This document shows, one piece after another, positions 22,247-35,352 of a DNA stretch of 64,000 bases. Each line of letters begins with the position of its first letter. The first letter of the stretch is position 1. A program made the position numbers and the translations under genes. The DNA is from a bacterium. GTDB lineage: Bacteria > Actinomycetota > Acidimicrobiia > Spongiisociales > ZC4RG35. The DNA is taken from assembly GCA_028823995.1 (NCBI GenBank), contig JAPPFD010000002.1, positions 53,654 through 117,653 of the forward strand. The letters are read 5' to 3'. The notes below the pieces were generated by a model. That model saw nothing but the letters and a program-made list of their open reading frames with translations. It did not search any database and was not told where the DNA came from.

Positions 22247-23031
22247 ACGATCGCCAACCCAAACACAGAGCCGTGATGGACCTCGGCCGAGAAGAATGGC
22301 TGGAGGCGCTCGGAATGGACGCCGCAGACATCCCGAAAGCAGTGATCATGGAGGGCTCCTGGTGGCGAGCCCAACGCACCGAGTGGCGCCTGAGCTACCT
22401 GGACGACGTGCGTGAACTCGCCTTCCCAGACATGTTCTACGGCTTCTGGCAAGGATCACCCGTCGTCTACTCCTGCGTCTACGGAGCACCAAGGGCCGTC
22501 GAGTTGGCACACCTGTTCGGAGTACTGGGCACCTCCCGGATGGTGATAATCGGCACCTGCGGCGCTCTAGATCCCGGGTTGGCTACCGGGGACGTGGTCG
22601 TCCCTTCGCGAGCCGTGGCTCGGGAGGGCGTAGCGCACCTCTACAAGACAGTGACCTCAGACCCCGGCATCGTCCGCTCCGACCGGCACCTGACCGCGCA
22701 AGGTAGGACTGCCCTGGAGAACAGGGGTATCAGAACCGCGGACTCCCTACATCTGACCTGGAGTTCCATCTTCGCCCAGAGCGGAGCCATGGTCGAGGAA
22801 TGGCGGGAGACAGCCTACGGATCAGTCGACATGGAAGCCGCCACACTCTTCGCCGTAGCAAAACACTTCGGCTTCGCCGCCACAGCGCTGCTGGTGGTCT
22901 GGGATCAACTCACCGCCGATCGAAGCTTCCTCGACCCCCTAACGCCTGAGGAGCAAAGCAGTCTTGAGGTTGCCAACATGACCGTATTCGAGGCAACTCT
23001 GGACATAGTGTTGAGTCCAGACCACCTTTGA
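22243..23031 (+). CDS. Nucleoside phosphorylase (PNP/UDP family 1)
   Basis: ATG in ORF 21097..23031 overlapping the upstream stop (ATGA). PNP_UDP_1-like motifs (IIGTCGALDP, MEAATLFAVA). 262 aa. Confidence 0.7.
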   Translation: MNDRQPKHRAVMDLGREEWLEALGMDAADIPKAVIMEGSWWRAQRTEWRLSYLDDVRELAFPDMFYGFWQGSPVVYSCVYGAPRAVELAHLFGVLGTSRMVIIGTCGALDPGLATGDVVVPSRAVAREGVAHLYKTVTSDPGIVRSDRHLTAQGRTALENRGIRTADSLHLTWSSIFAQSGAMVEEWRETAYGSVDMEAATLFAVAKHFGFAATALLVVWDQLTADRSFLDPLTPEEQSSLEVANMTVFEATLDIVLSPDHL

Positions 23032-23143: not shown

Positions 23144-26100
23144 CTATCCATCGGATCCTAGCAACTCGATCATCCCTTCAGGTAAACCAAAGCGTTCCGA
23201 TACCCTGACTTCCCTAAAACGGCTTGTCCTTCTTCCCAGGGATTCCTCAAGTAAGCTGACGTAGCGCCTTTGTGCACGATAGTCTCTTGCCGGCATCAAT
23301 GCCTTCAATGCTATCACAAACCCCGTTGCTTCATCACCCAGTAATCGATTGTTTTCCAATGTGTTAACTATTCTATTGAAGGCATCGCCGCGTGAACACC
23401 CGATATCTTGGGCAATGGATATCAGATCTTCCTTGCCGCCACCTAGCCAGACATTCTGTTGGCAGAGCTTGATCAACAGACCTGCTAGCTTTTCGTTCGG
23501 CTTGTCAAGCGCTTCGACTTTCTTGATCTCCAGTCCCAGATCGCCTAACTGCCCTCGTTCTGCTACTGCCCCCAGAACCGGCAACATCGCCGTGTCCCTA
23601 TTCAGAACATCGTAAGCTCTCCGCAAGACTTCAACACCATCGTCGACCAGTGACGAGTTACCAACGTGGCAGTCAAAGGAGGAGTGTCTTCTTCCCACGG
23701 TAAGAAATAGCTTTGCCCCAGCAGTTGGTGATTCACTGACCAAGTTAGCCAACACATGAAGGGGAACAGGCTGTCCCGCAGGAAGCACTCGATAAATCTC
23801 TTCTAATGTATCCACATCCGTCTGCCGTAAGGTAGGAAAGTCCTCTAAGCGTGCGGGGAAGGAGTAAAGGAACATTAACCAGTTGATAACTTCAGCAACG
23901 AACTGACGGGACCTACCGGAAGGCAAATTACTAAACAGTGGTATCACATCTTCTAAGGTTCTTCTATCCGCATCCATAATAAACATCGGATTAAAAACCT
24001 TCAACGGCGATAACGTTACTGGAAATCCAGTAGTCCCAATTCTCGCGTCGAACGGCAAACGCTGATCCGCCATTGAAAGCACATCTTCCCACACGATACC
24101 CTCATCGAACCAGCGAGTCTCGGCTGTGATCCAATCGTCTTGGTCGCCCAATCTCCCTTCTTTGGCTCCGTCTGCCAGCTCCAATAGCTTTTTCGCATCG
24201 GTACATGACTCCAGACACGCTACAATAGGCCACGGTAATGTTCGCCACACAGTCCTATTCGCTGCATGGTCCTCGTCAAAGGAGACCTTTGCAAAGGCCT
24301 TAAGTGTACTCGCTAACATATCTTTGGAAGGTGCCTCTAAGAATCTGCCAGCCCACTTATACGGTAGCCAACTGGGATGCCAGTCAGAAATCGCATTAAG
24401 CGTTTGCAAAACCGTCGCGCTACCAGGAGTCAACCGGTTAATTGGCCCGTAGGACAACATCGTATCTAAAACCGTGACTCTAGGGCCGCCGTGATGTCTA
24501 GGAGACTCCAGTATTGAAATCGCGGCTTTTAGGGTCGGGTCCACGTCCTGTCGCTCCAATAATGCCCTTCGTTTTTCTGACTGGAACACACCTACAAACG
24601 TACCAATGGGTGTCCTCGGAATTAGGCGCAGCACCTGCTCAGTTGCCCAACCGTTCTTAGTGTGGTCAGTGTCGGCTAACAGAATATCAACCTGGTCTTG
24701 GACGCCATTAGGCCAATAACTGTTTGCCATGTCGGTAGCCCAGTCGACGTCATTAGCGACAAGCGCAAGTAAACAATTCCAAGCTCCTAAGAACTTAACA
24801 TGGTCGCTACCTGTAAGTCGCAGCCCTAATTCGTCTCGGTAAATGGTCTCCATTTGAGAATCATACACATTAGCTAACTGTGCATGCAGACGGGGGTTGG
24901 CCTTATCCAGCGCTCTAATCGCCAGTCTCCCTAGCAGCGTTTTGTATTTCGGCTGCCGCCGTGCCGAACCCTCCTCTAGCAAGGCGATGGCCAGGTCCGC
25001 ACCCACTAAGTGCAAACCTTCCCCCTCGTTACCGTCTTCTTCATTCAAAGCGGCACAAGTTGAATGCACCAACTCGCGAAGCTCCTGCCGCTGAGCAAAA
25101 CATTTGCCCGCAGCAAACAAGAAAACGTTCCTCCAGAATGGGATGGGAGCTATTTCCTCTAATCGCGCCTGGATGTCGGGATAGGTGTCCTCCACTAAGC
25201 TCTCTGCCGCCATAAACTCTTGCAACGAGCGGATTTCAAATCCTATTCTCTCCGCTTCCATTTCGACCAAAAACACCAAACGCTCCGAGGCCGCTGCCAC
25301 GATCTGTTCGGCGATAGTGCGTCGATCCTCCTCCGGATGTTCCTCCGCCCTTAGCCGCGCTTCTACAAGAGACACAAATCGATGGCGATCCAACAAAGCG
25401 TCTGTTCTGCCTGTCCTTTCAGAGTCCACTTGAAGGATGAGGCCCACTTGGTTGTGGATAGTCCTAATGTCGGGTTCGTATTCACTCAATATCCTTGACG
25501 CAGAGATGTCCCTTTCCATTTCTCTGTCGTATATGACGTCGTAATATGAATTAAACAGATTCCAACGCGCTTGTGGAGGCTGCCCTAAACGATCTACCAA
25601 CGCAGTCATAATCGTTACCTGCAACGGTGTCCTCATCAAACGACTGGTTGATGGATCTCCAAAAGCCCGCCTTAACCGGCCTAACACCTTTTCTTTCCGA
25701 TCTTCGTCAGCACCATACCGGACTGCAGCGAGCCGCTGCGCATAATGCCAACCAAGTTGTTCCGACAACTCGGCCAGATGTTGGTGTTGGTAATACAGCG
25801 GTGAAAAGTCCTCATTGTAGCCTTGGGGGCGACTAGTCGCTATTGAGAGAATGTCCGCGTTAGCACTGCTGGCATCCACCCAGAACTCTCTAATGGCACG
25901 CAGAACTTCATCTCTGTTGCTTGAAGGTGGTACCTCATCTAATCCGTCAAAAATGAAGACACTTGGATAGACCGCGAGGAACTGACGTAGATCCGCCGGT
26001 GATACCTCGGCATCAGTGCGTCTCTTTATTTGTGATGACAAATAGCCAAGCACGGAGTATATTGGCGACTCCGAACTGGGAGCCAAAGCCTTGGCAAAAT

Positions 26101-27205
26101 CGTTTAATGTCAATTTAAAAGGAAAGCGAGGCACGACTTTATGCGAGATGTTTTCGCTTTCGCAATGGTGCTGAATCGTTCCTAAGGCACCCTTTGTGGG
26201 CGGAGACCATGTATGCTCAGGTTTTCTCGCGATGACCGCAGCACGGAAGATTTGGCAAATGAACTGCGTCAACGTAGTCTTTCCCTGACCTGGACCTCCG
26301 ATCAATACAAACCGCCCGCGGGATGCTCCAGCTAAACCTGCCTCAATGCGGTCTGGCACTGGAGAGGCACCCACAGAAGCAGGATCAAGACGTTCGGAAG
26401 ATGCGGCCAATACGTTTCTGATGAATCCTTCCTTAAGCTGAGGCCGGCCGACATCATTAAGATCCTCAAGGGCCTCGCCCAGCATATGTGACCTAATCAT
26501 ATTGGGCTCATGTTGAATAGGCAGGTCAACAAACACCGTGGCTAGAGGTATAGGTTCGTTTACAGTGTGACCAGCTTGCTCCAGATTGACGTACTCATCG
26601 CTTAGCAATTCCTTTTCCAAAAACCGCGTCATGGTAGTATGCATGTCAACCGATGCCGGTTTTAGTGTCGCAAAGGCGGCCGCGAGCACATCGCCTGGCG
26701 TTATGAAAGTGGAATAGGTGGTCCTAACTTCAGGATAAATGTCAAGGAATATGCGAATCTGGTCATAGTCCCATATGGCGTAGTCCTTGAGATGTGATTG
26801 CGATTTGAATTCCTTTAGAACGGCAAATGCCTTGTCTTTGGAACCTTTATCCTTTACTGGTGTTAGAACCACATTCGTAGCGTAAATGAAGAAATCAGGT
26901 GACCGTATGTTGGTGTCTGGGTCGGTATACTTTTGTAACTCGTCCCTTAGTTGCTCTACTGCCCATAGCCCGTCTTCATAGACATTGCCGGAACGCTGCC
27001 GGAATTTTGCCTGTACAACGCCATAACCATCCCAGCCATCTAAATGCGTGGGGTAAGGTACCTTCCGTTCGAAAGTCGCCTCTCGCCCACCGTCGGGGCC
27101 ATCCCCAAACACCACAATCCCAGGGCCCAAAACCTTAGCTGCTAACGCTTGAATCAACTGCTCAAACGAGCGGGGAGATAAAGTTGAAAGGTTGTAGTCA
27201 GCCAT
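23144..27205 (-). CDS. Bacterial NLR-like (bNACHT / Avs-like) STAND NTPase with an N-terminal Mrr-type restriction-endonuclease domain and a long C-terminal helical sensor-like region (1353 aa). Putative antiviral defence protein.
   Basis: Residues 1-70 match the Mrr_cat pattern (SFEQLIQAL...GDGPDGGRE...GVVQAKF). NACHT-type NTPase: Walker A at about aa 300-312 (FVLIGGPGQGKTT), Walker B (VFIFDGLDE) and the NACHT-specific TSR motif (ILSIATSRPQGY). About 750 C-terminal residues are helical-repeat-like. The gene is about 50% GC against a host background near 68%. Confidence 0.75.
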   Translation of the reverse strand: MADYNLSTLSPRSFEQLIQALAAKVLGPGIVVFGDGPDGGREATFERKVPYPTHLDGWDGYGVVQAKFRQRSGNVYEDGLWAVEQLRDELQKYTDPDTNIRSPDFFIYATNVVLTPVKDKGSKDKAFAVLKEFKSQSHLKDYAIWDYDQIRIFLDIYPEVRTTYSTFITPGDVLAAAFATLKPASVDMHTTMTRFLEKELLSDEYVNLEQAGHTVNEPIPLATVFVDLPIQHEPNMIRSHMLGEALEDLNDVGRPQLKEGFIRNVLAASSERLDPASVGASPVPDRIEAGLAGASRGRFVLIGGPGQGKTTLTQFICQIFRAAVIARKPEHTWSPPTKGALGTIQHHCESENISHKVVPRFPFKLTLNDFAKALAPSSESPIYSVLGYLSSQIKRRTDAEVSPADLRQFLAVYPSVFIFDGLDEVPPSSNRDEVLRAIREFWVDASSANADILSIATSRPQGYNEDFSPLYYQHQHLAELSEQLGWHYAQRLAAVRYGADEDRKEKVLGRLRRAFGDPSTSRLMRTPLQVTIMTALVDRLGQPPQARWNLFNSYYDVIYDREMERDISASRILSEYEPDIRTIHNQVGLILQVDSERTGRTDALLDRHRFVSLVEARLRAEEHPEEDRRTIAEQIVAAASERLVFLVEMEAERIGFEIRSLQEFMAAESLVEDTYPDIQARLEEIAPIPFWRNVFLFAAGKCFAQRQELRELVHSTCAALNEEDGNEGEGLHLVGADLAIALLEEGSARRQPKYKTLLGRLAIRALDKANPRLHAQLANVYDSQMETIYRDELGLRLTGSDHVKFLGAWNCLLALVANDVDWATDMANSYWPNGVQDQVDILLADTDHTKNGWATEQVLRLIPRTPIGTFVGVFQSEKRRALLERQDVDPTLKAAISILESPRHHGGPRVTVLDTMLSYGPINRLTPGSATVLQTLNAISDWHPSWLPYKWAGRFLEAPSKDMLASTLKAFAKVSFDEDHAANRTVWRTLPWPIVACLESCTDAKKLLELADGAKEGRLGDQDDWITAETRWFDEGIVWEDVLSMADQRLPFDARIGTTGFPVTLSPLKVFNPMFIMDADRRTLEDVIPLFSNLPSGRSRQFVAEVINWLMFLYSFPARLEDFPTLRQTDVDTLEEIYRVLPAGQPVPLHVLANLVSESPTAGAKLFLTVGRRHSSFDCHVGNSSLVDDGVEVLRRAYDVLNRDTAMLPVLGAVAERGQLGDLGLEIKKVEALDKPNEKLAGLLIKLCQQNVWLGGGKEDLISIAQDIGCSRGDAFNRIVNTLENNRLLGDEATGFVIALKALMPARDYRAQRRYVSLLEESLGRRTSRFREVRVSERFGLPEGMIELLGSDG

Positions 27206-27576
27206 GTTTATGCATCGGCTGCTGTTGTGTGATAGGCGTATCCGGGCGAACCTTTACACGGTCCGGGGCATGCCAGGAAAAGAATTTGAGCATGATGAGA
27301 GAATACTAGCCGTCGACACATCGACTCTGCCGCAAGCCTAGGTGCATGAGGTTGTTCAATGTTGGGTAGTTTCCATACATGCTGCCCCCGAAGCCGCACC
27401 CCCTTTTGCCCCAGAATCCGCGCCCCACACTTCGCCGTAGCTAAACAGTCGGGATGACTGCGACCGCCCTACTGGCACTTCGGCATCAGGGTACAGAGCT
27501 TTCAGGGCCGCTCCATGCGTGTCACACCCGGATAGGTATCCTGGCGGGGGAGCCCATCCCAGGAGGATGATTGAGA

Positions 27577-27924
27577 ATGCGGTTGGAAGACCTGAACCCC
27601 GAAACGGTGGTCGATGGTCTCGTGGCGGGGGAACGGGCCACCGTGGTGGCCGTCTATTGGCATGGTGCGGGGACTGTCCAAGTGGTGTATCGCACATCCC
27701 AAGGTGTGTCTGAGAGGCTTCTGTCCCGCGACGACGAGGCCCGCCTGTTGGTTGCCACCGCAGAGCGTCCCTGGACGCTCGATGCGCCTGGTCACGCTTT
27801 CAAACTCGCATCAGAAGCGCTCCGCATCCACTTGGCGCATCTGTTCGATCCCTACCTAGCCGTCCAAGGGTCGAACATTAGCTGCATGTTGTGGAGGGAA
27901 TCGGCACTGCAGGCCAGAGGTTAG
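27577..27924 (+). CDS. Hypothetical protein (115 aa), divergent from the NLR-like gene
   Basis: Strong RBS aggagga 9 nt upstream of ATG 27577; a TTG at 27571 is also possible. No recognisable domain. Low-GC context. Confidence 0.4.
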   Translation: MRLEDLNPETVVDGLVAGERATVVAVYWHGAGTVQVVYRTSQGVSERLLSRDDEARLLVATAERPWTLDAPGHAFKLASEALRIHLAHLFDPYLAVQGSNISCMLWRESALQARG

Positions 27925-28074
27925 TCCCCTAAACAAAACTCCGTCTTACGGATCAGGGTTGCTAGCTCAACTGGTGTGGAAAGGAGATCTTCCTTTTCTC
28001 TTGCTACGATGGCACTTCGTCCTTGGTGACAGGATCCGTCGTGGTGGGTTGCCGAGAAAAGAGATCTCTGGGGA

Positions 28075-29187
28075 GTGCTGTTTTATAGTATGTTGTCTGA
28101 CTGGGTGGCTTCGATGGAGATGCTTGTGGTGTTCCAGAGAGAGTGTCAGCGAATCTTTGCAGAGTTATCGGAGTGGAATGACGGCCATCCAGAGTGGCAG
28201 AAGATGTTTGGTGGATGGTTGGGGTTGATGTTTACAGCGGTGGTTTTGGCTGGGTCGGGATGGGCAGATCCGGTCCGGCTAGAGGAATTCCTGCGCCTTA
28301 TTGTGACTCCGCTAGCCGTTTTCTGGGGCTTTGGGGAGTATGGCAGAAGATGGCAGTCTGACGACCATCCCGGCGAGGTGGGGCCTTCTTCCGCTGAGGG
28401 TCGAGAAATCGATTGGCGGCGGACATTAGTAGGAGTGACCCACTTGGCAGGAATAGTTGCCGTCCTCGCCATCCTGATTCTTGTGGTTTTCGTTGATGGG
28501 CCTTCGGAACTGTGGACTGCGTTTGCCCCTGGAGTTCTCATTTTTGTGTGTCTAGCGATTACCAACGCTGTCGCTCGTGCAGTGGGCAGCAGGCCGGCCC
28601 GTTTCTCTGTTGCGCACACCGTGCCTGACGTCGGGAGGGGCCGAGTGCTGGCAGCCACGTTGATAGACAGTGTTATGGCGTGCGTATTTTCGCTTTTCCT
28701 GCTGATGATGCTCCTGGCGGCTTTGGCAGTAGAGGACCAGGTGGGTTCCGACATGCTGCCCTTTACAAACAAGGACTTGGGAAATTCCTTCGATGGCATC
28801 TGGATACCGTTGATGGTGTTCTTGGCAGTCTTCTTGGTGTACCGGTGGGTCGCCCTTCGGAGATGGGGATGTGGACTGGGTGGGCTTTCGATGCGATTGC
28901 AACTCCGTGACCACGGGGGCGAGAGGCCAGGACGGTTCAGGCTTCTCCTAAGGTGCGCATTCGATACTGTATGTATGGGTATGGCTGTGGCCGCGGTTGC
29001 GTTCCTCCCGGCCGATCGGGGGGTCCCGGCGATGGGCGCGGTTGTAGTGATCGCTGTTTGCGTTGGTACCAATGAAGGCAGAAGCCTGACCCATGTACTG
29101 TCGGGCACACAGTACGAACTGCGACAACGCGGTGGACCCAGCCAAAGATCGAACCCAAATGGCGGGATAGACCCACTTGAAACCTAG
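28075..29187 (+). CDS. Hypothetical polytopic membrane protein with an RDD-family-like C-terminal region
   Basis: At least 6 hydrophobic helices. The C-terminal segment resembles RDD-domain proteins (RWGCGLGGLSMRLQLRDHGG..RLLLRCAFD). Start uncertain. GC about 54%. Confidence 0.45.
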   Translation: MLFYSMLSDWVASMEMLVVFQRECQRIFAELSEWNDGHPEWQKMFGGWLGLMFTAVVLAGSGWADPVRLEEFLRLIVTPLAVFWGFGEYGRRWQSDDHPGEVGPSSAEGREIDWRRTLVGVTHLAGIVAVLAILILVVFVDGPSELWTAFAPGVLIFVCLAITNAVARAVGSRPARFSVAHTVPDVGRGRVLAATLIDSVMACVFSLFLLMMLLAALAVEDQVGSDMLPFTNKDLGNSFDGIWIPLMVFLAVFLVYRWVALRRWGCGLGGLSMRLQLRDHGGERPGRFRLLLRCAFDTVCMGMAVAAVAFLPADRGVPAMGAVVVIAVCVGTNEGRSLTHVLSGTQYELRQRGGPSQRSNPNGGIDPLET

Positions 29188-29541
29188 TAGCAGGGTGGTT
29201 CAAACCAACACCTGTTCCCCTATGCCAAAGCAGGTCCCCTGTCGGATCCTGTCCAGCAGGGGTGCCACAGGACAAACGGGGAGCCCTCAGCAGTTGGACG
29301 CCGATAATCATGGTCCTAGCGGCAATAACAGCGGGCGTGCTCATCGGCGGGTACCCAGGAGCCGGGCCCGGGTATAGGCGTATCCGCCATAGCACTGCAC
29401 ACCTGGCGAGCAGGATCCAAACGGAACTAATCCACTGTGTCGGGTGCAAGTTATCCCAAAAAGAGCTGACGCCTCTTGGCCACCGGACCTGGGAAGTGCC
29501 AGATAGGGGCCCTCGGGGATGCGGAACCGAAGTCGGATCGG

Positions 29542-30759
29542 CTAGGCGGCGGGGTCGACCAGGCGTCCTATGAATAAGAAGGCGCCGGTTTCGGGGTGAA
29601 CGATGGCCCAGAGGAAGGGGCGGTCGGCGACCACCGTGAGGTCCGGTGGTGGTGGTGCTGACTCCTTGAAGGCCATGGCGGTGGCTGCAGCGGCTTCGGT
29701 GCCTTTCTCGTCGACGATCACCTTGGCGCCGTGGAGGGCGGCGGTGATGAAGATGCCCGGGGCGATGTCATCGAAAGGCGCTCCGGCGCAGAACCCCCGG
29801 GGGCAGAGCCACTCGAACAGGTCGGTGGGCGGCAGGGTTTGTTCCCACTTGGGCATGGTTAGATCGACAAAGCCCTGTTGGGCAATGTCCTCAAGGCCGG
29901 TCAGGTCCTGTGAGTCGAGCAATTCCTCGACCGCTGGAAGTCCTCCTGGGTCGTGGGGCACGATCAGCCACATGGCCAACCGGCCCCCCTGGTATGGGAG
30001 TTGTACCGCGTCGGCGCCGTCGAGTCGGACGAAGCGACGAGCGACCGGCTCCCGGTCGCGCATGAACGGTACCGTCACCGCGAGGCCGTCTCCGGTGGTG
30101 AACGGGCCATCTTCGGTCCACTCGGGGAGGAACGGCTCTGCCCAGTCGGCCTTCAGGTACACCGTGTTCACCAGGACCAGTTCCTGGCTTTGGACGGTCT
30201 GTTCGGTGACGATGGTGGGAACCAGACCGCGGGTGGTGTCCGATACCCATCCGTTGATGGTCTCGGCCGCCGACGCGCCGTCGTCGAGGTCGATCGGGTG
30301 GACCGCCGCTCCGTAGTGGGCGCCGGCAATCTCCAAGAAACCGGGCAGTGGAGAGAACTCGTCGTCGGGGAAGAGACGGTTGGCCACCTCCAGGGTGGTC
30401 GGTTCCACCGAGGCGGTGGCCAGCATCAGATCGACCGCATTGGCCGCAGGGTGAAGATCAAGCTCGGGGAACCCGAAGATCTCATCGAGCACCGCCCCGG
30501 TGTCTCCGGATGCGCCGGCCCGGCTGAGGCTGAAAGCCAAACCGAGGCTGACCGGACTGGAGACCGCGTTGCCCACCAGGTGGCGATGAAAGTCCCAGCC
30601 GGCCGCGTTGGCTCCGGCCACCCAATCCGCCGTCGGCGCCAGGGGATCGGCTGGCAGCCGGTCGGCCACCGGCTCCAACAACGTCGTGGTGGTGACCGAG
30701 GGACCGCATGCCGCGGTCAAGAAACACAGGAGAACGAGAAACCTGAGCAATTTTGTCAT
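29542..30759 (-). CDS. Serpin-family protease inhibitor, lipoprotein (bacterial serpin)
   Basis: ATG at 30759 (MTKLLRFLVLLCFLTAACG is a signal peptide plus lipobox). Serpin hinge GTEAAAAT, then the reactive-centre loop. C-terminal serpin signature (VADRPFLWAIVHPETGAFLFIGRLVDP). About 405 aa. Confidence 0.8.
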   Translation of the reverse strand: MTKLLRFLVLLCFLTAACGPSVTTTTLLEPVADRLPADPLAPTADWVAGANAAGWDFHRHLVGNAVSSPVSLGLAFSLSRAGASGDTGAVLDEIFGFPELDLHPAANAVDLMLATASVEPTTLEVANRLFPDDEFSPLPGFLEIAGAHYGAAVHPIDLDDGASAAETINGWVSDTTRGLVPTIVTEQTVQSQELVLVNTVYLKADWAEPFLPEWTEDGPFTTGDGLAVTVPFMRDREPVARRFVRLDGADAVQLPYQGGRLAMWLIVPHDPGGLPAVEELLDSQDLTGLEDIAQQGFVDLTMPKWEQTLPPTDLFEWLCPRGFCAGAPFDDIAPGIFITAALHGAKVIVDEKGTEAAAATAMAFKESAPPPPDLTVVADRPFLWAIVHPETGAFLFIGRLVDPAA

Positions 30760-31034
30760 AGCTTGTTCGATCGTAAGAAGAGCCTCAGAGAACCTCGTTG
30801 TCAACTCTAGAACGCGGCCTAGCAGATGTGCGGAGACCACATGGTCGGCTATTCGAAGGGACGCCGGGGCCAATCGAGGAGGACGGCCCACTTATCATCC
30901 TCGACCAATGGCCTCTTTGATTGACCACTTCTCTCCTCCAAAGCGCCCCTCAACGCGACTCGGGGAGGCGAAGTGTCACACCCCCTTCCCATGCTTGCTG
31001 CAAGCAGCATTCCAGCAGGGAGGAGGCCTACATC

Positions 31035-31784
31035 TTGAGTAACCGATCTGGGATCGAGTGGACTGAGACGACGTGGAACCCGACGACTGGTTGCGACCAG
31101 GTGTCCATGGGGTGTGACAACTGCTACGCGCTGACTTTCGCGAAGCGTCTCAAGGCCATGGGCCAACCCAAGTATCAGAACGACGGTGATCCTCGCACCA
31201 GCGGTCCCGGATTTGGACTCACCCTACACCCGGATGTCTTGGCCGAGCCAAGGCGATGGAGGGCGCCTAGGTTGGTGTTTGTGAACTCAATGAGCGACTT
31301 GTTTCATCCCGAAGTCCCTCTCGAGTTCATCCAAGAGGTGTTTAGTGTGATGGCCGAAACGCCACAGCACACCTACCAGATCCTTACCAAGCGTTCCAAG
31401 CGACTTGCATCTCTCGGGCCCCAGCTGGACTGGTCCCGAAATGTTTGGATAGGTGTCAGCGTTGAAACCAGTCGCTATGTCTTCCGCATCGACCACCTCA
31501 GAACCGTTCCTGCCGAAGTCCGCTTCATCAGTGCGGAACCTCTACTGGGTCCTCTTCCCAATCTGGATCTCTCGGGCATCCACTGGCTGATCGCAGGGGG
31601 AGAGAGCGGCCCCGGGGCAAGACCCATCGAAGAAGCATGGGTCCTCGACTTGCGGGATCAGTGTGCAGCCGCCGACGTAGCCTTCTTCTTCAAGCAGTGG
31701 GGAGGCCTCCACTCAAAATCCGGTGGCCGGGAACTTGATGGTGCTCTATATGACAATTTGCCATCACTCAGCAAGGCAAGCTAG
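31035..31784 (+). CDS. Phage Gp37/Gp68-family protein (DUF5131) with an N-terminal three-Cys motif
   Basis: TTG start at 31035 preceded by ggaggagg. N-terminal IEWTETTWNPTTGCDQVSMGCDNCYA matches the family hallmark (C-x6-C-x2-C). About 250 aa. Confidence 0.7.
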   Translation: MSNRSGIEWTETTWNPTTGCDQVSMGCDNCYALTFAKRLKAMGQPKYQNDGDPRTSGPGFGLTLHPDVLAEPRRWRAPRLVFVNSMSDLFHPEVPLEFIQEVFSVMAETPQHTYQILTKRSKRLASLGPQLDWSRNVWIGVSVETSRYVFRIDHLRTVPAEVRFISAEPLLGPLPNLDLSGIHWLIAGGESGPGARPIEEAWVLDLRDQCAAADVAFFFKQWGGLHSKSGGRELDGALYDNLPSLSKAS

Positions 31785-31798
31785 GCCGGGCCAACATT

Positions 31799-32785
31799 GT
31801 GCGGGTATGGGGATGCTGGACCAAAGGCAAGTTGGACATTCTGCGGCGGTATCTGGATGCCTTCACCACAACGACCAAGCACAAGTCAGATGAAAGGATT
31901 TATATTGATGCTTTCGCTGGTGAGCAGGAAAACCGACTTCGTCTGACAGATGAGCCTCTGGAAGGTTCGGCAAGAATTGCGTTATCAATTGAAGATCCAC
32001 CCTTCACCCGATTGCGTTTCTTTGAAACCGAAGCCAACGCATCCGCGCTTGAGTCATCGTTGAGGCGCGACTACCCAAACCGTGATCTGGAAGTGTTAGG
32101 TGGGGATTGTAATGAACTCATCCCCAGGGAACTTGCTCGGTTGCGGCGGCTCAATCGAGTTCCGACGTTCGCCTTTATTGACCCTAACGGTATGGAGGCG
32201 GAGTGGCGAACGTTAAAGGCATTGGCGCATTTCAAAGAGGGACACCGGTGGAAAGCCGAGATTCTCTACTACTTTGCACCGCCGATGTTTACGCGAGTAT
32301 TGCCGGTTGATGGCCAACCGGTCAGCAAGAAAAACGCTGCGAGAATTGATCGTCTCTACGGTACGAAGGACTGGCGTTTCATTTACGAGGCCCGCCTACG
32401 TTGTGCCTTAGAGCCTTGGCAAGCCCGACAAGAGTACCTCAATCTGATGAGATGGCGCATGGAAGAATCCTTAGGATATGAATGGACACTCCCGATTGAA
32501 GTTCGAAATGAGCGGGGCGTCGTCATCTATTACATGATCTTTGCCACTGATCACGAAGCGGGTGAACGCATAATGGGGAGCGTTTACGCTAAAGCTGCCG
32601 AAGAGTTTCCGATAATGCGCGAGAAGGCGCGAAGGATTCGCAAACAGGAAGAAAACAAAGAACGCGGCGTAACAAGCCTTTTCGGTGAGGACGATGGAGA
32701 ACTCTGGGGCCCAATTCTGCCAGGAGAACGGTTTTACGAACACGAGCCACCTACCAGGCCATGGTTCCTGCGCGAGTGCCCTTGA
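31799..32785 (+). CDS. Three-Cys-motif partner protein TcmP-like, with Rossmann/methyltransferase-like motifs
   Basis: Immediately downstream of the DUF5131 gene. N-terminal WTKGKLDILRRYLDAFTTT resembles the TcmP family start. IYIDAFAGEQ and FAFIDPNG resemble MTase motifs I and IV (weak). GTG start. About 48-50% GC. Confidence 0.55.
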   Translation: MRVWGCWTKGKLDILRRYLDAFTTTTKHKSDERIYIDAFAGEQENRLRLTDEPLEGSARIALSIEDPPFTRLRFFETEANASALESSLRRDYPNRDLEVLGGDCNELIPRELARLRRLNRVPTFAFIDPNGMEAEWRTLKALAHFKEGHRWKAEILYYFAPPMFTRVLPVDGQPVSKKNAARIDRLYGTKDWRFIYEARLRCALEPWQARQEYLNLMRWRMEESLGYEWTLPIEVRNERGVVIYYMIFATDHEAGERIMGSVYAKAAEEFPIMREKARRIRKQEENKERGVTSLFGEDDGELWGPILPGERFYEHEPPTRPWFLRECP

Positions 32786-32972
32786 ACTCGATGGAAGTGT
32801 CACTGGCCTGCGAGCATCACAGCACTGCTGGCAAGAACGATTTAGCCAACCCCCGTTGTTTCATCACCCGGTGCTACAACTAAGCGATAGATCGAGAGGG
32901 TGCCCCAGCAACACTTCCGCGTCGGACTTCCCGACCTCGATCGCCAACCCACATGGGCATCGGAAGGTCAGA

Positions 32973-33827
32973 TCAGTTCTGGTCCCCACCCACAAAGGAA
33001 GAAAGCACCTCCGGTATCGCCTCCCATGCAACCGAGCGGGTGAGACGATTCAGTGTTCCCACCCCCACACTCTTCTGTCCACCAAGTTCCTCATCGAGCA
33101 CTGAGGTTGGGACCACCCAAAATACCCAGCACAGTGGATCCTGAACATCCTTATTGGTTGCGGGTACGGTGTCATGAAGGCAGAACACATAAATGTCAGC
33201 CAGACGCCGGGGCGGATCGAAGGTTTGCCACTGGTCTGTGTCGGGATCCCATGCCATCTTCCTAGGCCTAATGTCGAATCTCGGTGTCGACATCTGTTCG
33301 AGGTTCCACGTCTGGCTGATTCCCGAGGCCTTGACTTCGATGGTGAGGTTGCGGTAGCGGAGATCATACGAGTTCCACTCGGTTCGATGGTCGGCGTCAT
33401 CAATGATGCCGAGTGCTTGACCGACCAGCCACTCGGCATATAAGCCTCTGTTGACGTTGTCAACAAGATTCCCGACGGCCCAACGGTTGAAGCTCCCGGG
33501 TGGAGGGCTGGGGGGAGGCTTAAGCCAAACAATGGGAATGTCAGGAGCAGCAGGCGACAACAAATCCATCGCGTGGTACATCTCATCCTGGTAGTAGAGC
33601 CACCAGCGCCCCATGGGCCCTCCTGCCCAGCTGTCAAACCCCAGTTCTATCCCGTTGCCAAGCTTGATAAGCGCTATGGCTTCGAATTCCCACCATTCGT
33701 TGTACCGGGGGCCGGCAAACAGTTGGGGGCCAAAGGCCAGGTAGGAATGCTCTCGCTCGATCAGCCGATATACAGCTACCGATCCTTTGGTGATCCTGTC
33801 GGGTTCTCCGTTGCGTTCTCTGTTCAT
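32973..33827 (-). CDS. Hypothetical protein with a C-terminal PD-(D/E)xK-nuclease-like signature
   Basis: The E...D...E-x-K arrangement (YAEWLVGQALG ... YDLRYRNLTIEVKASG ... DIYVFCLH) is typical of the restriction-endonuclease fold. Second gene of an operon with the HNH-DUF433 gene (ATGA overlap). Confidence 0.45.
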   Translation of the reverse strand: MNRERNGEPDRITKGSVAVYRLIEREHSYLAFGPQLFAGPRYNEWWEFEAIALIKLGNGIELGFDSWAGGPMGRWWLYYQDEMYHAMDLLSPAAPDIPIVWLKPPPSPPPGSFNRWAVGNLVDNVNRGLYAEWLVGQALGIIDDADHRTEWNSYDLRYRNLTIEVKASGISQTWNLEQMSTPRFDIRPRKMAWDPDTDQWQTFDPPRRLADIYVFCLHDTVPATNKDVQDPLCWVFWVVPTSVLDEELGGQKSVGVGTLNRLTRSVAWEAIPEVLSSFVGGDQN

Positions 33828-34384
33828 AGAGTCTTGGCCCTAACGGTTCGCAGAAGCTCGATCTGACGGTCGATGATCCGCTCGGCATCCGACATCTCGA
33901 TGCCCTCGTAGCAATCCAGGAACTGGTCGAGGGTTATGCCTTCGTTGAGCTCCTCGAATAGCTCGGCAATAGGCAACCAAGTACCGGCAAATACCCACTC
34001 ACCGCTAAGACGGTCCGTACGTCTCTCAACAGCTCCGCATGTTTCCCAGATCGACTGGCGTTGTTCTGAGGACTTGCCGAATTGCCTCACTACAAGGGGT
34101 GGCTGCCACCCGCAACCGCAATTCCGCTCGGCCGCGAGGCGACGCTCTGGTGATCGGTAGTCAATGGGTTGATCGGTTTTCCGTCGATTGCAAGTTTGGC
34201 AGAGGGTTTGGAGGTTGTTCCAACAGTCTGGCCCGTCAGCGGCTTGCGGGACTATGTGGTCGATCTCAAGATCCTGGGAGCTTCCGCAAGAAAGGCATTG
34301 ATCCCCATCGAGACTGAACACCCGTTCGCGACGTCCCTTCTTTTTACTCATACGTGGGAATCTTAACGAGCGGGTGTGACGCAT
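33824..34384 (-). CDS. HNH endonuclease fused to a C-terminal DUF433 domain
   Basis: HNH motif CLSCGSSQDLEIDHIVPQAADGPDCWNNLQTLCQTCNRRK. C-terminal GTWLPIAELFEELNEGITLDQFLDCYEGIEMSDAERIID matches DUF433. The likelier start is ATG at 34351 (MSKKKGRR). Confidence 0.7.
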   Translation of the reverse strand: MRHTRSLRFPRMSKKKGRRERVFSLDGDQCLSCGSSQDLEIDHIVPQAADGPDCWNNLQTLCQTCNRRKTDQPIDYRSPERRLAAERNCGCGWQPPLVVRQFGKSSEQRQSIWETCGAVERRTDRLSGEWVFAGTWLPIAELFEELNEGITLDQFLDCYEGIEMSDAERIIDRQIELLRTVRAKTL

Positions 34385-34574
34385 TCCCCTCGGGTTCGTG
34401 CCGAAGCAGGGGAAAGCGGCAACACCCGCGCCGGTTACCGCCTCGAAACTGCTAACAGCAACACCAGAACGGCCGCGCCATGACCCACCATGCCGGCTTC
34501 ATCCGCCGGAGATACTGACCGGGTAGGCAACCGAGGCCCGTGCAACGCCGATTTCTCTCTCCTCCTAGGGTCTC

Positions 34575-34600
34575 GGGATTTGTCATAATATAATGATCTT
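34575..34600. promoter_or_regulatory. AT-rich near-palindrome (tgtcataatataatgatc) just upstream of the GntR gene; candidate operator or -10 region
   Basis: Seen in sequence about 5-25 nt upstream of the gntR-family start. 12 of 14 positions of tcataatataatga are dyad-symmetric. Coordinates are approximate, because text and ORF track disagreed by 1 nt here. Confidence 0.3.
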
Positions 34601-34602
34601 CC

Positions 34603-35352
34603 ATGAGCGGCGGCTTGGACAGACACCTTCAACGTGGCCCTCTCCCACTGTGGTTCCAGATCAAGGAACAACTCAGACGGGCCATCGATATGGGCGAGTG
34701 GGCGCCGGGCGAACAGTTGCCAACCGAGAGCGAACTCACCGAGTTCTTCGGTGTCAGCCGGATCACGGTCCGTACTGCTTTCGAGCGGCTGGGCGACCAG
34801 GGTCTGGTTGAACGGACTCCCGGGCGGGGCACCTTCGTGGCCCAACGCAGTTTCGAACAGCCGGTCACTCGTCTGGCCGGATTCCACGAGGACATGGCTA
34901 GCCGTGGCTTCGTCCCCTCCGCTCACACCCTCTCAGTCGGAGTCGTTCCCGGACCCTCCGATGCGGCGTCGGCACTGGGTGCCGAGGGCGAGGACCTGGT
35001 GGAGGTCCGGCGTCTCCTCTCAGCCGACAACACGCCCATGGCTTTCCAACACGGCTATCTGCCTACCTGGGTGTTGGGAAACGGCGAGTTCACCACCGCC
35101 GACCTTCACAACAAGTCGCTTTATCGGATCATGGAGGAACGGACCGCGTCGCATCCGGCGACCGCCGAAGGGACCATCGAAGCGGTCCGGGCTGACCGCA
35201 CCCGAGCCGACCTGCTGGACGTGCCGGAGGGATCGCCCCTCCTCCTCGCCACCCGCTTGTCTCTCGATAGGTCCCGACGCCCGGTCGAGTGGGTGCGGCT
35301 TTGGTACCGGGCGGACCGCTACCGCTTCCGGGTGGAGTTGCAACTCCCATGA
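34603..35352 (+). CDS. GntR-family transcriptional regulator (HutC subfamily, UTRA effector domain)
   Basis: N-terminal winged HTH (LPTESELTEFFGVSRITVRTAFERLGDQGLVERTPGRGTFV) and a C-terminal UTRA-like domain. 249 aa. Confidence 0.8.
   Translation: MSGGLDRHLQRGPLPLWFQIKEQLRRAIDMGEWAPGEQLPTESELTEFFGVSRITVRTAFERLGDQGLVERTPGRGTFVAQRSFEQPVTRLAGFHEDMASRGFVPSAHTLSVGVVPGPSDAASALGAEGEDLVEVRRLLSADNTPMAFQHGYLPTWVLGNGEFTTADLHNKSLYRIMEERTASHPATAEGTIEAVRADRTRADLLDVPEGSPLLLATRLSLDRSRRPVEWVRLWYRADRYRFRVELQLP

Follow-up and report, generated by a model that had tools for sequence, protein, structure and literature searches.

Among the closest described systems is the three-Cys-motif pair, recognised by the profiles PF07505 (DUF5131, phage Gp37/Gp68) and TIGR04474 (TcmP). 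In the window, by which the whole analysed stretch of 64,000 nucleotides is meant, two neighbouring genes exceed the cut-offs of both profiles, and no difference from that pair was found. Together, DUF5131 and TcmP represent a large family distributed over phages, plasmids and defence islands.

The same two components are known from PADLOC-DB as the models PDC-M41 and PDC-M30. [quoted passage not shown] The window proteins match these models (PDC-M41B, 1e-108; the other B model, 8e-104; PDC-M41A, 1.1e-28), and the A and B components lie adjacent, as PDC-M41 requires. Nothing structural distinguishes the listed cassettes from the window pair, and their embedding beside Type I restriction-modification (R-M) operons was reproduced by an independent locus survey. 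Unlike those embedded copies, the window pair is not part of an R-M system but sits in a mixed island. The preliminary description had proposed an undescribed modification or defence function for the pair. As a candidate defence cassette, it is already listed and so not undescribed as such; its function is nevertheless uncharacterised, as was also claimed. No paper on the function of DUF5131-TcmP was found in the searchable literature, nor any experiment on a pair member, including a published phage-protection test of PDC-M41; a cold-seep study assayed other PDCs, M41 and M30 not being among them.

More distant relatives are informative about the possible chemistry. The predicted structure of DUF5131 is closest to spore photoproduct lyase (SPL, PDB 4fhc), a DNA-acting enzyme. 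The two proteins share 10% identity, with no match at the sequence level even when a profile is used, and they differ in their cysteine motif (CX6CX2C in DUF5131, CX3CX2C in SPL) and in length (249 aa versus 340 aa). In both sequence and motif, DUF5131 thus falls outside the SPL family. Moreover, unlike SPL, it has a methyltransferase-like partner and is mobile rather than linked to sporulation. A phage-borne, SPL-like radical-SAM enzyme is also known in gp53 of phage M6, an isomerase that rearranges a modified base within DNA (PMC8989533). Its substrate is a base that is already part of DNA, and it shows that chemistry of this kind occurs in phage-host conflict. However, M6 gp53 has the canonical CX3CX2C motif at residue 125, in contrast to the CX6CX2C of DUF5131, and, judged by its published motif only, it is not a PF07505 member. 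Moreover, it works within a 5-hmdU pathway of several genes for thymidine hypermodification (kinase, aGPT-Pplase and PLP enzyme), and none of these pathway genes recurs beside DUF5131.

Two further systems resemble the pair in architecture or in genomic habit. The radical SAM mobile pair TIGR04471/TIGR04470 is likewise a two-gene radical-SAM cassette on mobile elements, but its partner is a second radical-SAM protein, whereas TcmP is predicted to have a methyltransferase fold. DUF5131 matches protein A of that pair (TIGR04471) only partially (E 2.3e-20), and the 73 bits obtained against a cut-off of 355 place it outside the family. PrrC and RloC are also small accessory cassettes inside or at the end of hsd operons, although these anticodon nucleases are unrelated to the pair proteins.

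The DUF5131 and tcmP genes

The DUF5131 gene (31035..31784, plus strand) encodes a 249-aa protein assigned as a non-canonical radical-SAM enzyme. It matches PF07505 end to end (E 2.7e-97; 325.5 bits against a gathering threshold of 28.9; profile positions 2-243 of 243), which bears out the family assignment made beforehand from the letters of the DNA. The start codon is a TTG at 31035, and a Shine-Dalgarno sequence read directly from the DNA, GGAGGAGG (31019..31026, plus strand), lies 8 nt 5' of it. This start retains the invariant N-terminus IEWTETTWNPTTGC. In the public gene call on the same scaffold, DUF5131 is 225 aa long and begins at an internal ATG, and therefore loses the first cluster cysteine.

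The string GCDQVSMGCDNC, quoted earlier as evidence of three cysteines, is present in the sequence. The three-Cys motif itself, CDQVSMGCDNC (31092..31124, plus strand), has the spacing CX6CX2C with residues C20, C27 and C30, and is followed by an invariant Y31. These cysteines are presumed, from their conservation, to be the ligands of a [4Fe-4S] cluster. A GGES sequence (G188-G189-E190-S191; 31596..31607, plus strand) was found to be invariant in two alignments and corresponds to GGE, a SAM-binding motif across the radical-SAM superfamily. Both the cysteines and GGES are invariant among 50 sequences from two clades; over 8,000 homologues of DUF5131 were scored in all. Structure modelling predicts the partial TIM-barrel fold of radical-SAM enzymes, and RadicalSAM.org places the protein in Megacluster-5-2, beside SPL (5-3). 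Searches of the PDB by sequence, with single sequences or profiles, returned no solved-structure relative of DUF5131 or of TcmP.

The tcmP gene (31799..32785, plus strand) begins with GTG 14 nt past the DUF5131 stop and encodes a 328-aa partner with a predicted class-I SAM-methyltransferase fold. It matches TIGR04474 with E 3.6e-52 (177.9 bits against a cut-off of 53; profile positions 2-262 of 263), so that both genes hit the profiles foreseen for them far beyond chance. In contrast, a Pfam search of TcmP at E up to 0.01 gave no family. The family comprises 2,613 cluster representatives at 50% identity, and the window protein is a straightforward member of a subtype of approximately 330 aa; other subtypes, of approximately 360-410 aa and with DPFG, are found with DUF5131 proteins that hardly differ.

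The weak methyltransferase-like motifs IDAFAG and FIDPNG, singled out in the preliminary description, are both there. Motif I, DAFAG (31907..31921, plus strand), contains an invariant D37 and a G41 found in at least 90% of sequences, and lies right after strand beta1 of the model. GDCN (G102-D103-C104-N105; 32102..32113, plus strand), conserved in at least 90%, lies right after beta3, where the adenine-binding acidic residue of class-I methyltransferases sits. Motif IV, DPNG (32180..32191, plus strand), with an invariant D128, lies right after beta4, where amino-methyltransferases have their catalytic motif of the (D/N)PP(Y/F) type. In the model, D37, E76, D103 and D128, which are invariant or at least 90% conserved, fall exactly after beta1 to beta4 of a Rossmann-like seven-strand fold, as expected of a class-I methyltransferase. 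Other subtypes carry DPDG or DPFG as motif IV. Because the DPNG of the window protein lacks an aromatic residue, it is not certain that a flipped base would receive a methyl group.

The best structural matches of the TcmP model are RlmJ (PDB 6qe5; DUF519) and Trm1 (PDB 3axt). RlmJ is the m6A2030 methyltransferase of 23S rRNA, and Trm1 produces m2,2G26 in tRNA. The likeness is structural only: identities are 9-14%, neither the RlmJ/DUF519 profile (PF04378) nor Trm1 is matched, and motif IV of the window subtype has no aromatic residue. Moreover, unlike RlmJ and Trm1, TcmP is mobile and always coupled to a radical-SAM gene. It can also be observed that these closest structural relatives act on RNA, not DNA, which speaks against a nucleic-acid model centred on DNA.

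At its C-terminus, TcmP carries the tail ERFYEHEPPTRPWFLRECP (32726..32782, plus strand), with a conserved Y-x-H-x-P-P-x-x-P pattern in which P321 occurs in at least 90% of sequences. A linker modelled with low confidence precedes it, and the tail may be a docking peptide. The two proteins have pI values of 6.1 and 6.6, neither being markedly basic, and net charge and pI give no clear nucleic-acid-binding signal for DUF5131 or TcmP. Among TcmP homologues, the domain fusions encountered were partial DUF5131-TcmP read-throughs and one weak AbiEi_4 match.

Linkage of the pair and its genomic contexts

DUF5131 and TcmP form a near-obligate and self-contained pair. Within this DUF5131 clade, profile searches find a gene of the TcmP family directly adjoining DUF5131 in 75 of 86 loci, while single-sequence tblastn undercounts badly (about 30 of 86); the conserved pairing claimed at the outset is thereby upheld. 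The locus search used the DUF5131 alignment because that of TcmP was too divergent to derive patterns. Three distant TcmP homologues were looked up as well: one (P0166) led to a usable locus (L090), and the other two lay on contigs too short. The two genes point the same way, 1-30 nt apart, or else converge so that their 3' ends overlap. One fragment (P0211) shows a plausibly real in-frame DUF5131-TcmP fusion, and another (P0250) is frameshifted. No third gene family recurs with the pair in more than 12 of 80 loci (at most 15%). In RefSeq, a plasmid-borne pair is labelled 'phage Gp37/Gp68 family protein' and 'tcmP'.

The two genes evolve under purifying selection, with dN/dS of 0.13 and 0.125 against an 85%-identical relative. 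DUF5131 retains 65-90% identity across Actinomycetota and their phages, whereas TcmP falls to 24-52%, and TcmP subtypes are swapped at one and the same locus. This combination is consistent with DUF5131 being a conserved catalytic subunit and TcmP a variable one that does the targeting. The pair also decays readily: one locus (L007) lacks TcmP, and another (L095) keeps only an 81-aa DUF5131 remnant.

The pair is horizontally mobile and is found for the most part in mobile or defence-related surroundings, not in housekeeping ones, in agreement with the phage and mobile-island habitat suggested beforehand; DUF5131 occurs on 440 plasmids and in 180 phage records. The commonest neighbours are HsdM of Type I R-M systems (12 loci, about 8 distinct contexts), tyrosine integrase (11) and HsdS (8), followed by SF1 helicase (7), HsdR (4) and IS481 transposase (4). 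In several loci, the order hsdR-hsdS-hsdM-DUF5131-tcmP runs in one direction; in all, hsd genes adjoin only some 15% of the pair loci. Among 672 neighbours, no family of nucleases recurs, so that the pair is without the co-occurring cognate nuclease of a restriction-modification system. Many copies lie on chromosomes outside any such element, and some have ordinary metabolic neighbours (L004).

On prophage and viral contigs, the pair stands beside integrases, CI/Xre repressors and ImmA proteases. For instance, in Gordonia phage BaxterFox it is flanked by the integrase and the immunity repressor. Where temperate phages carry the paired form, it belongs to a lysogeny module beside the repressor, not to a replication module. 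In lytic-type phages, most DUF5131 genes are solo and located among replication and recombination genes, suggesting that DUF5131 can work without TcmP. One such gene, encoding Panchino gp53, adjoins the early DNA-metabolism genes RecE, RecT and RusA.

The surrounding island

The window pair has a GC content of 54.4%, compared with 63-66% in the flanks, and the serpin gene upstream of it (29542..30891, minus strand; PF00079, E 1.6e-66) was likewise correctly anticipated, as was the range of 50-55% GC. The horizontally acquired island holds other genes as context. A 1353-aa P-loop NTPase of defence type (23144..27205, minus strand; 50% GC), with an N-terminal restriction-endonuclease-like domain, fills its variable slot, and a 117-aa HmaA helicase remnant (27571..27924, plus strand) covers profile positions 2-106 of 1176 with E 1.3e-30. 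No sigma-70-like promoter or intrinsic terminator was found at 30500-34700. The region 27000-35000 contained no riboswitch or Rfam family, its sole match being at chance level (E 0.18).

Downstream lie a 284-aa protein (32973..33827, minus strand), whose C-terminal domain has a PD-(D/E)xK-like signature (E..D..EVK), and an HNH endonuclease fused to DUF433 (33824..34384, minus strand; PF01844, 7.6e-13; PF04255, 4.7e-06), whose gene shares 4 nt with the start of the 284-aa gene. In Pfam, even at E up to 10, neither the 284-aa protein nor its homologues find a match. This is the 'nuclease operon' that had been named as a neighbour; it does adjoin the pair, but it is not part of the system. A three-gene restriction-like module including the 284-aa protein was considered, the lead being a PD-(D/E)xK-like domain that adjoins the pair at a second, non-syntenic locus (L012/L015/L016). 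It was rejected, as 75 of 79 loci from a metagenome scan with the alignment of the 284-aa protein are without the pair, and the remaining four, with DUF5131 or TcmP nearby, are copies of the same two loci.

A candidate base-modifying cassette and its alternatives

An even chance may be given to the reading that the pair is a two-enzyme, SAM-dependent cassette that modifies nucleic-acid bases in conflicts involving phages and mobile elements. The two proteins, presumably acting as a complex, would both use S-adenosylmethionine. TcmP, with its predicted RlmJ/Trm1-type class-I fold, would bind the target nucleic acid and present a base, which it would probably N-methylate, and DUF5131 would perform radical chemistry on the same nucleotide. 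Between them, the two would introduce or alter a base modification, in DNA or, less probably, in RNA. Its role would lie in the conflict between bacteria, phages and mobile elements, most likely as anti-phage defence encoded on islands and prophages, which is the hypothesis behind PDC-M41. The analysis thus narrows the question to a concrete model of an SPL-like radical enzyme and an RlmJ/Trm1-like targeting methyltransferase with no third component. Several observations sit uneasily with it, namely DPNG without an aromatic residue, the non-basic proteins, solo DUF5131, the metabolic neighbours at L004 and the ready decay.

Other readings draw on much of the same evidence. A rather unlikely one is that a mobile element modifies its own DNA so that host restriction cannot cut it, which would be counter-defence and not host immunity. 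The presence of DUF5131 in 180 phage records and on 440 plasmids suits such self-protection, as does the position of lytic-type copies among early DNA-metabolism genes (Panchino gp53 with RecE/RecT/RusA); placement beside Type I R-M operons could then reflect interplay with restriction, and the SPL-like enzyme of phage M6 makes a DNA hypermodification protecting phage DNA (PMC8989533). However, temperate-phage pairs occupy the lysogeny module beside the repressor instead of the replication module, and many copies are chromosomal without a surrounding element. Moreover, the early-gene-type DUF5131 proteins are mostly without TcmP, and for this reason may be a functionally different subfamily. 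It is unlikely that the pair acts by abortive infection or as a toxin-like effector pair, one protein sensing infection or restraining the other and the radical-SAM enzyme being the effector, which might produce a viperin-like toxic or chain-terminating nucleotide, abstract hydrogen from nucleic acid and so damage it, or burn SAM. The two-gene architecture, the position next to Type I R-M genes, reminiscent of PrrC-type retaliation modules, and the easy loss expected of costly effectors would agree with this. Against it, none of the cofactor and catalytic motifs that an active methyltransferase needs is missing from TcmP, which does not resemble a sensor or antitoxin; no nucleotide kinase or other viperin-type partner gene recurs, and DUF5131 has no sequence-level relation to viperins.

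A housekeeping-type function that happens to be mobile, such as rRNA or tRNA modification or SPL-like repair of DNA lesions, is highly improbable. The patchy distribution, the low-GC island, the occurrence on plasmids and prophages, the swapping of TcmP subtypes at a fixed locus, the frequent decay and the dominance of R-M, integrase and transposase genes among the neighbours all argue against it, even though the best structural matches are rRNA/tRNA methyltransferases and a DNA-repair lyase, one pair (L004) lies between ordinary metabolic genes, and purifying selection acts on both genes. Radical-SAM activases and RiPP maturases modify proteins or peptides, and the conserved C-terminal peptide of TcmP behind its disordered linker would be a conceivable substrate if DUF5131 acted on TcmP or another protein. 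Such protein modification has very little likelihood: DUF5131 solo proteins exist in phages without TcmP, no SPASM/twitch or RiPP-recognition domain is present, and no precursor-peptide gene recurs nearby.

Returning to the base-modifying cassette, a bolder version is tentative and stands well short of an even chance. In it, the variable, methyltransferase-like TcmP would bring the conserved, SPL-like DUF5131 to specific nucleic-acid sites, either to install a hitherto undescribed base modification or to damage invading DNA through radical chemistry, constituting a new kind of immune or epigenetic machine. If true, DUF5131 would be the first radical-SAM enzyme at the heart of a bacterial defence system to act on nucleic acid directly, and the several hundred solo phage DUF5131 genes would represent the same chemistry used for counter-defence. 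More generally, should DNA or RNA prove to be the substrate of the pair, nucleic-acid biology would gain new radical-SAM chemistry, and phage defence or counter-defence a new principle; possibly, a new tool for site-directed modification would follow as well. Lysogens of Gordonia phage BaxterFox offer a tractable system for the pair.

Two predicted enzymes encoded as a pair

The first gene of the cassette (31035–31784, + strand) encodes a 249-aa protein that covers the Pfam profile PF07505 (DUF5131, "phage Gp37/Gp68") end to end with an E-value of 2.7e-97. This bears out the identity assigned in the preliminary description, whose quoted sequence strings are all present. The true start, read from the sequence, is the TTG codon at 31035, with the ribosome-binding site GGAGGAGG 8 nt before it. 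Public annotation of the scaffold (L254/L255) takes an internal ATG as the start; the resulting 225-aa product lacks the invariant IEWTETTWNPTTGC, 24 invariant residues and the first of the three motif cysteines. In an alignment of 50 sequences, which form two clades about 50% identical to each other, the motifs C20-X6-C27-X2-C30 and GGES are invariant and C210 is nearly so. GGES is the "GGE" SAM-binding motif of radical-SAM enzymes, and RadicalSAM.org, an independent source, places DUF5131 in Megacluster-5-2, adjoining spore photoproduct lyase (SPL; 5-3). No sequence-level relatives of DUF5131 were found in the PDB.

The adjoining tcmP gene (31799–32785, +) encodes the methyltransferase-like partner of DUF5131, a 328-aa protein whose predicted structure is highly confident (pLDDT 92, pTM 0.90). 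Across 61 aligned sequences, with identity down to 29%, residues D37 (DxFAG), E76, G102-D103-C104-N105 and D128 (D-P-N/D/F-G) are invariant or nearly invariant, and alignment and model together place D37, E76, GDCN and D128 directly after strands beta1, beta2, beta3 and beta4, respectively. In amino-methyltransferases, these positions hold the cofactor-binding and catalytic motifs, so the Rossmann/methyltransferase-like motifs noticed earlier in TcmP are real. Assignment of DUF5131 to the radical-SAM enzymes and of TcmP to the class-I methyltransferase fold is considered highly probable. At the C-terminus of TcmP, behind a low-confidence linker, lies a conserved peptide, Y-E-H-x-P-P-x-x-P-W, which is suspected to serve in docking.

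The pair had been described as conserved, and a profile search of 86 loci (80 species-representative genomes with a close DUF5131 and another six contigs reached through TcmP) agrees, as a TcmP-family gene touches DUF5131 in 75 of them. The other 11 are mostly contigs ending too soon past DUF5131, or apparent deletions such as that in L007. The orientation of the partner varies: in some loci both genes point the same way with a tiny gap between them, in others they converge and their 3' ends overlap, so the linkage is more than an operon inherited once. DUF5131 is 65–90% identical across Actinomycetota and their phages, while TcmP identity falls to 24–52%, with at least three subtypes among the compared loci. 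At a chromosomal locus shared by L012, L015 and L016, where DUF5131 is 82–86% identical and the flanks 85–93%, TcmP belongs to one subtype in L012 and to a different one in L015, and is missing from L016. A conserved DUF5131 with a TcmP swapped at a fixed locus is what a conserved catalytic subunit with an exchangeable targeting or recognition subunit would show, roles that these comparisons suggest for the two proteins. An obligate partnership between them is very likely.

The DUF5131 copy of L016 (9974–10765, +) carries an in-frame 7-aa tandem duplication, SMSDLFN-SMSDLFH, inside a conserved motif; with no TcmP gene after it, it is probably decaying. In the metagenomic ORF fragment P0211, a single reading frame runs from the DUF5131 C-terminus across a basic linker of 14 residues into the TcmP N-terminus; it is a natural fusion or the result of a missing stop codon. 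Another ORF that looked like a fusion, P0250, contains frameshifted stretches and is an assembly artefact.

Genomic contexts and the proposed role

The expected location on phages and mobile islands is confirmed by several sources. DUF5131 occurs in 440 plasmid records, and on Rhodococcus ruber pYYL1.1 the pair adjoins a DUF262 protein, an EcoRI-type adenine methylase and an integrase. Among the best 80 DUF5131 matches in IMG/VR, 76 viral contigs were evaluable, and TcmP adjoins DUF5131 in 37 of these; Xre/CI repressors, tyrosine and serine integrases and ImmA/IrrE proteases recur as neighbours and together make up the lysogeny module. Gordonia phage BaxterFox carries the pair between its integrase and immunity-repressor genes. 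Panchino-type phages carry a solo DUF5131, about 45% identical, among RecE/RecT/RusA early genes. In 80 loci, the commonest neighbour is the Type I R-M subunit HsdM (12 loci, about eight distinct contexts), followed by tyrosine integrase (11), HsdS (8), SF1 helicase (7), HsdR (4) and IS481 transposase (4). In several genomes, hsdR-hsdS-hsdM-DUF5131-tcmP lie on one strand with gaps of 60–300 nt.

The pair had also been put forward as a candidate for an undescribed modification or defence function. It stands as a defence candidate but is already listed as one, since both window proteins match the PADLOC phage defence candidates (PDCs) PDC-M41 and PDC-M30. The PDC list goes back to a search by guilt-by-embedding, in which cassettes lodged inside BREX, DISARM and Type I R-M systems were collected; it produced 145 candidates, most without a phenotype test (bioRxiv 10.1101/2024.01.29.577857); a later study assayed eight, M41 and M30 not among them. 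Having been flagged in this way, the pair is no discovery of a new kind, and it belongs to a recognised but uncharacterised family. Full-text literature yielded no functional study of DUF5131, PF07505, TcmP or TIGR04474, in agreement with the preliminary description, whose observation was correct and whose interpretation was largely right. TcmP appears there only in gene lists, once beside the Hna defence gene of Sinorhizobium.

A single precedent is relevant: gp53 of phage M6, a radical-SAM enzyme of SPL-like type, rearranges a modified thymine inside DNA (PMC8989533). By the model proposed here, DUF5131 and TcmP would form a complex that acts on a nucleotide within nucleic acid, with TcmP providing SAM-dependent target recognition, and probably N-methylation too, and DUF5131 the 5'-deoxyadenosyl-radical chemistry. 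The cassette would play its part in conflicts of bacteria with phages or other mobile elements; its most probable use is defence supplied by islands and prophages. Taken as a whole, this proposal has about an even chance of being right; a nucleic-acid substrate is slightly favoured. The analysis shows the folds, motifs, pairing, mobility, contexts and selection; the complex, its substrate, the chemistry and the phenotype are inferred.

Defence is the tentative preference over self-protection of the element, in which the pair would modify the mobile element's own DNA against restriction; that reading is rather unlikely. Further competing explanations are an abortive-infection effector pair, viperin-like or SAM-burning, housekeeping RNA modification or repair, and protein modification. 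The large family, the confident prediction of both enzymes and a model specific enough for a test make the pair a worthwhile experimental target.

Several annotations in these contexts deserve mention. BaxterFox (L087, NC_031226.1) encodes a complete, unannotated DUF5131 at 32200–32943 (+), which shares 67% identity with the window protein across 248 aa and over which the record calls two short opposite-strand genes (40 and 41). Gene 42 encodes its TcmP under the label "hypothetical protein", and the homologue in phage Jablanski is labelled "methyltransferase". In three loci (L012, 14531–16672; L016, 12237–14357; L020), a RecQ-like helicase fused to a phosphoribosyltransferase (DEAD, Helicase_C, RecQ_Zn_bind, Pribosyltran) lies a few kb from the pair and is possibly another defence gene.

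The island and its other genes

In the window, which comes from a metagenome scaffold, the pair sits in a low-GC island at about 23.0–34.4 kb within a chromosome of ordinary metabolic genes; GC is 57% in the DUF5131 gene and 52% in tcmP, against 63–66% in the flanks. Relative to an 85%-identical relative, dN/dS is 0.13 for DUF5131 and 0.125 for tcmP, and this purifying selection marks both as live genes. Decay is seen in two relatives: L007 retains DUF5131 alone, and L095 the nuclease genes with an 81-aa DUF5131 stump.

A third recurrent component was not found among 672 ORFs clustered within 5 kb of the pair, as even the most widespread family is seen in just 12 of the 80 loci, which indicates that the pair is self-contained. 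The neighbouring 284-aa protein (32973–33827, −), with a PD-(D/E)xK-like E..D..EVK signature and no Pfam match, was considered for this role, since its domain adjoins the pair at a second, non-syntenic locus too. It was rejected: a metagenome scan with the domain gave 79 loci, only four of which contain the pair, all copies of the same two locations. It and the overlapping gene for an HNH endonuclease domain (residues 30–72) fused to DUF433 (residues 121–170; 33824–34384, −) are thus treated as neighbours.

The C-terminal 170 aa of the 284-aa protein define a family without a Pfam match that looks, from its conserved motifs (WALGNLV, AEWLVGQAL, D-L-x-Y-R-x3-(I/V)-E-V-K and YVFCLH), like a PD-(D/E)xK nuclease. 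It is represented in the window and in L012, L015, L016 and L095–L173; the 79 loci of the scan are mostly from marine metagenomes, where the usual form is a free-standing protein some 180 aa long. The window copy has an extra N-terminal domain of 105 aa fused to it, and its gene shares 4 nt with the HNH-DUF433 gene; the latter is present but uncalled in the relative L001.

The serpin-DUF5131-TcmP-284aa-HNH block is kept in a relative. In the adjoining slot, where the window has a 1353-aa nuclease-NTPase, this relative has another NTPase gene, with PRTase-CE/AAA_22 domains, which makes the slot a gene-exchange hot spot. The window's gene (23144–27205, −) encodes a P-loop NTPase with an N-terminal restriction-endonuclease-like domain (PADLOC Aga_REase, 2.4e-6; weak NACHT/AAA matches), and no other part of the window has a GC as low as its 50%. 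It is flanked by a 27-nt direct repeat, 24/27 identical (22839–22865 and 27421–27447), that looks like an insertion scar; the upstream gene, PNP_UDP_1, contains one copy in its 3' end. In the same variable slot, about 3 kb upstream of the pair, a 117-aa ORF (27571–27924, +) matches the first 106 of 1176 positions of the HmaA helicase profile (E 1.3e-30), which identifies it as a remnant of an Hma defence system.

The serpin (29542–30891, −; PF00079, E 1.6e-66) begins with a signal and a lipobox-like sequence, LLCFLTAACG, and adjoins the pair in L001 and L007 also. The genome that bears it is probably that of a sponge- or marine-associated member of the Acidimicrobiia.
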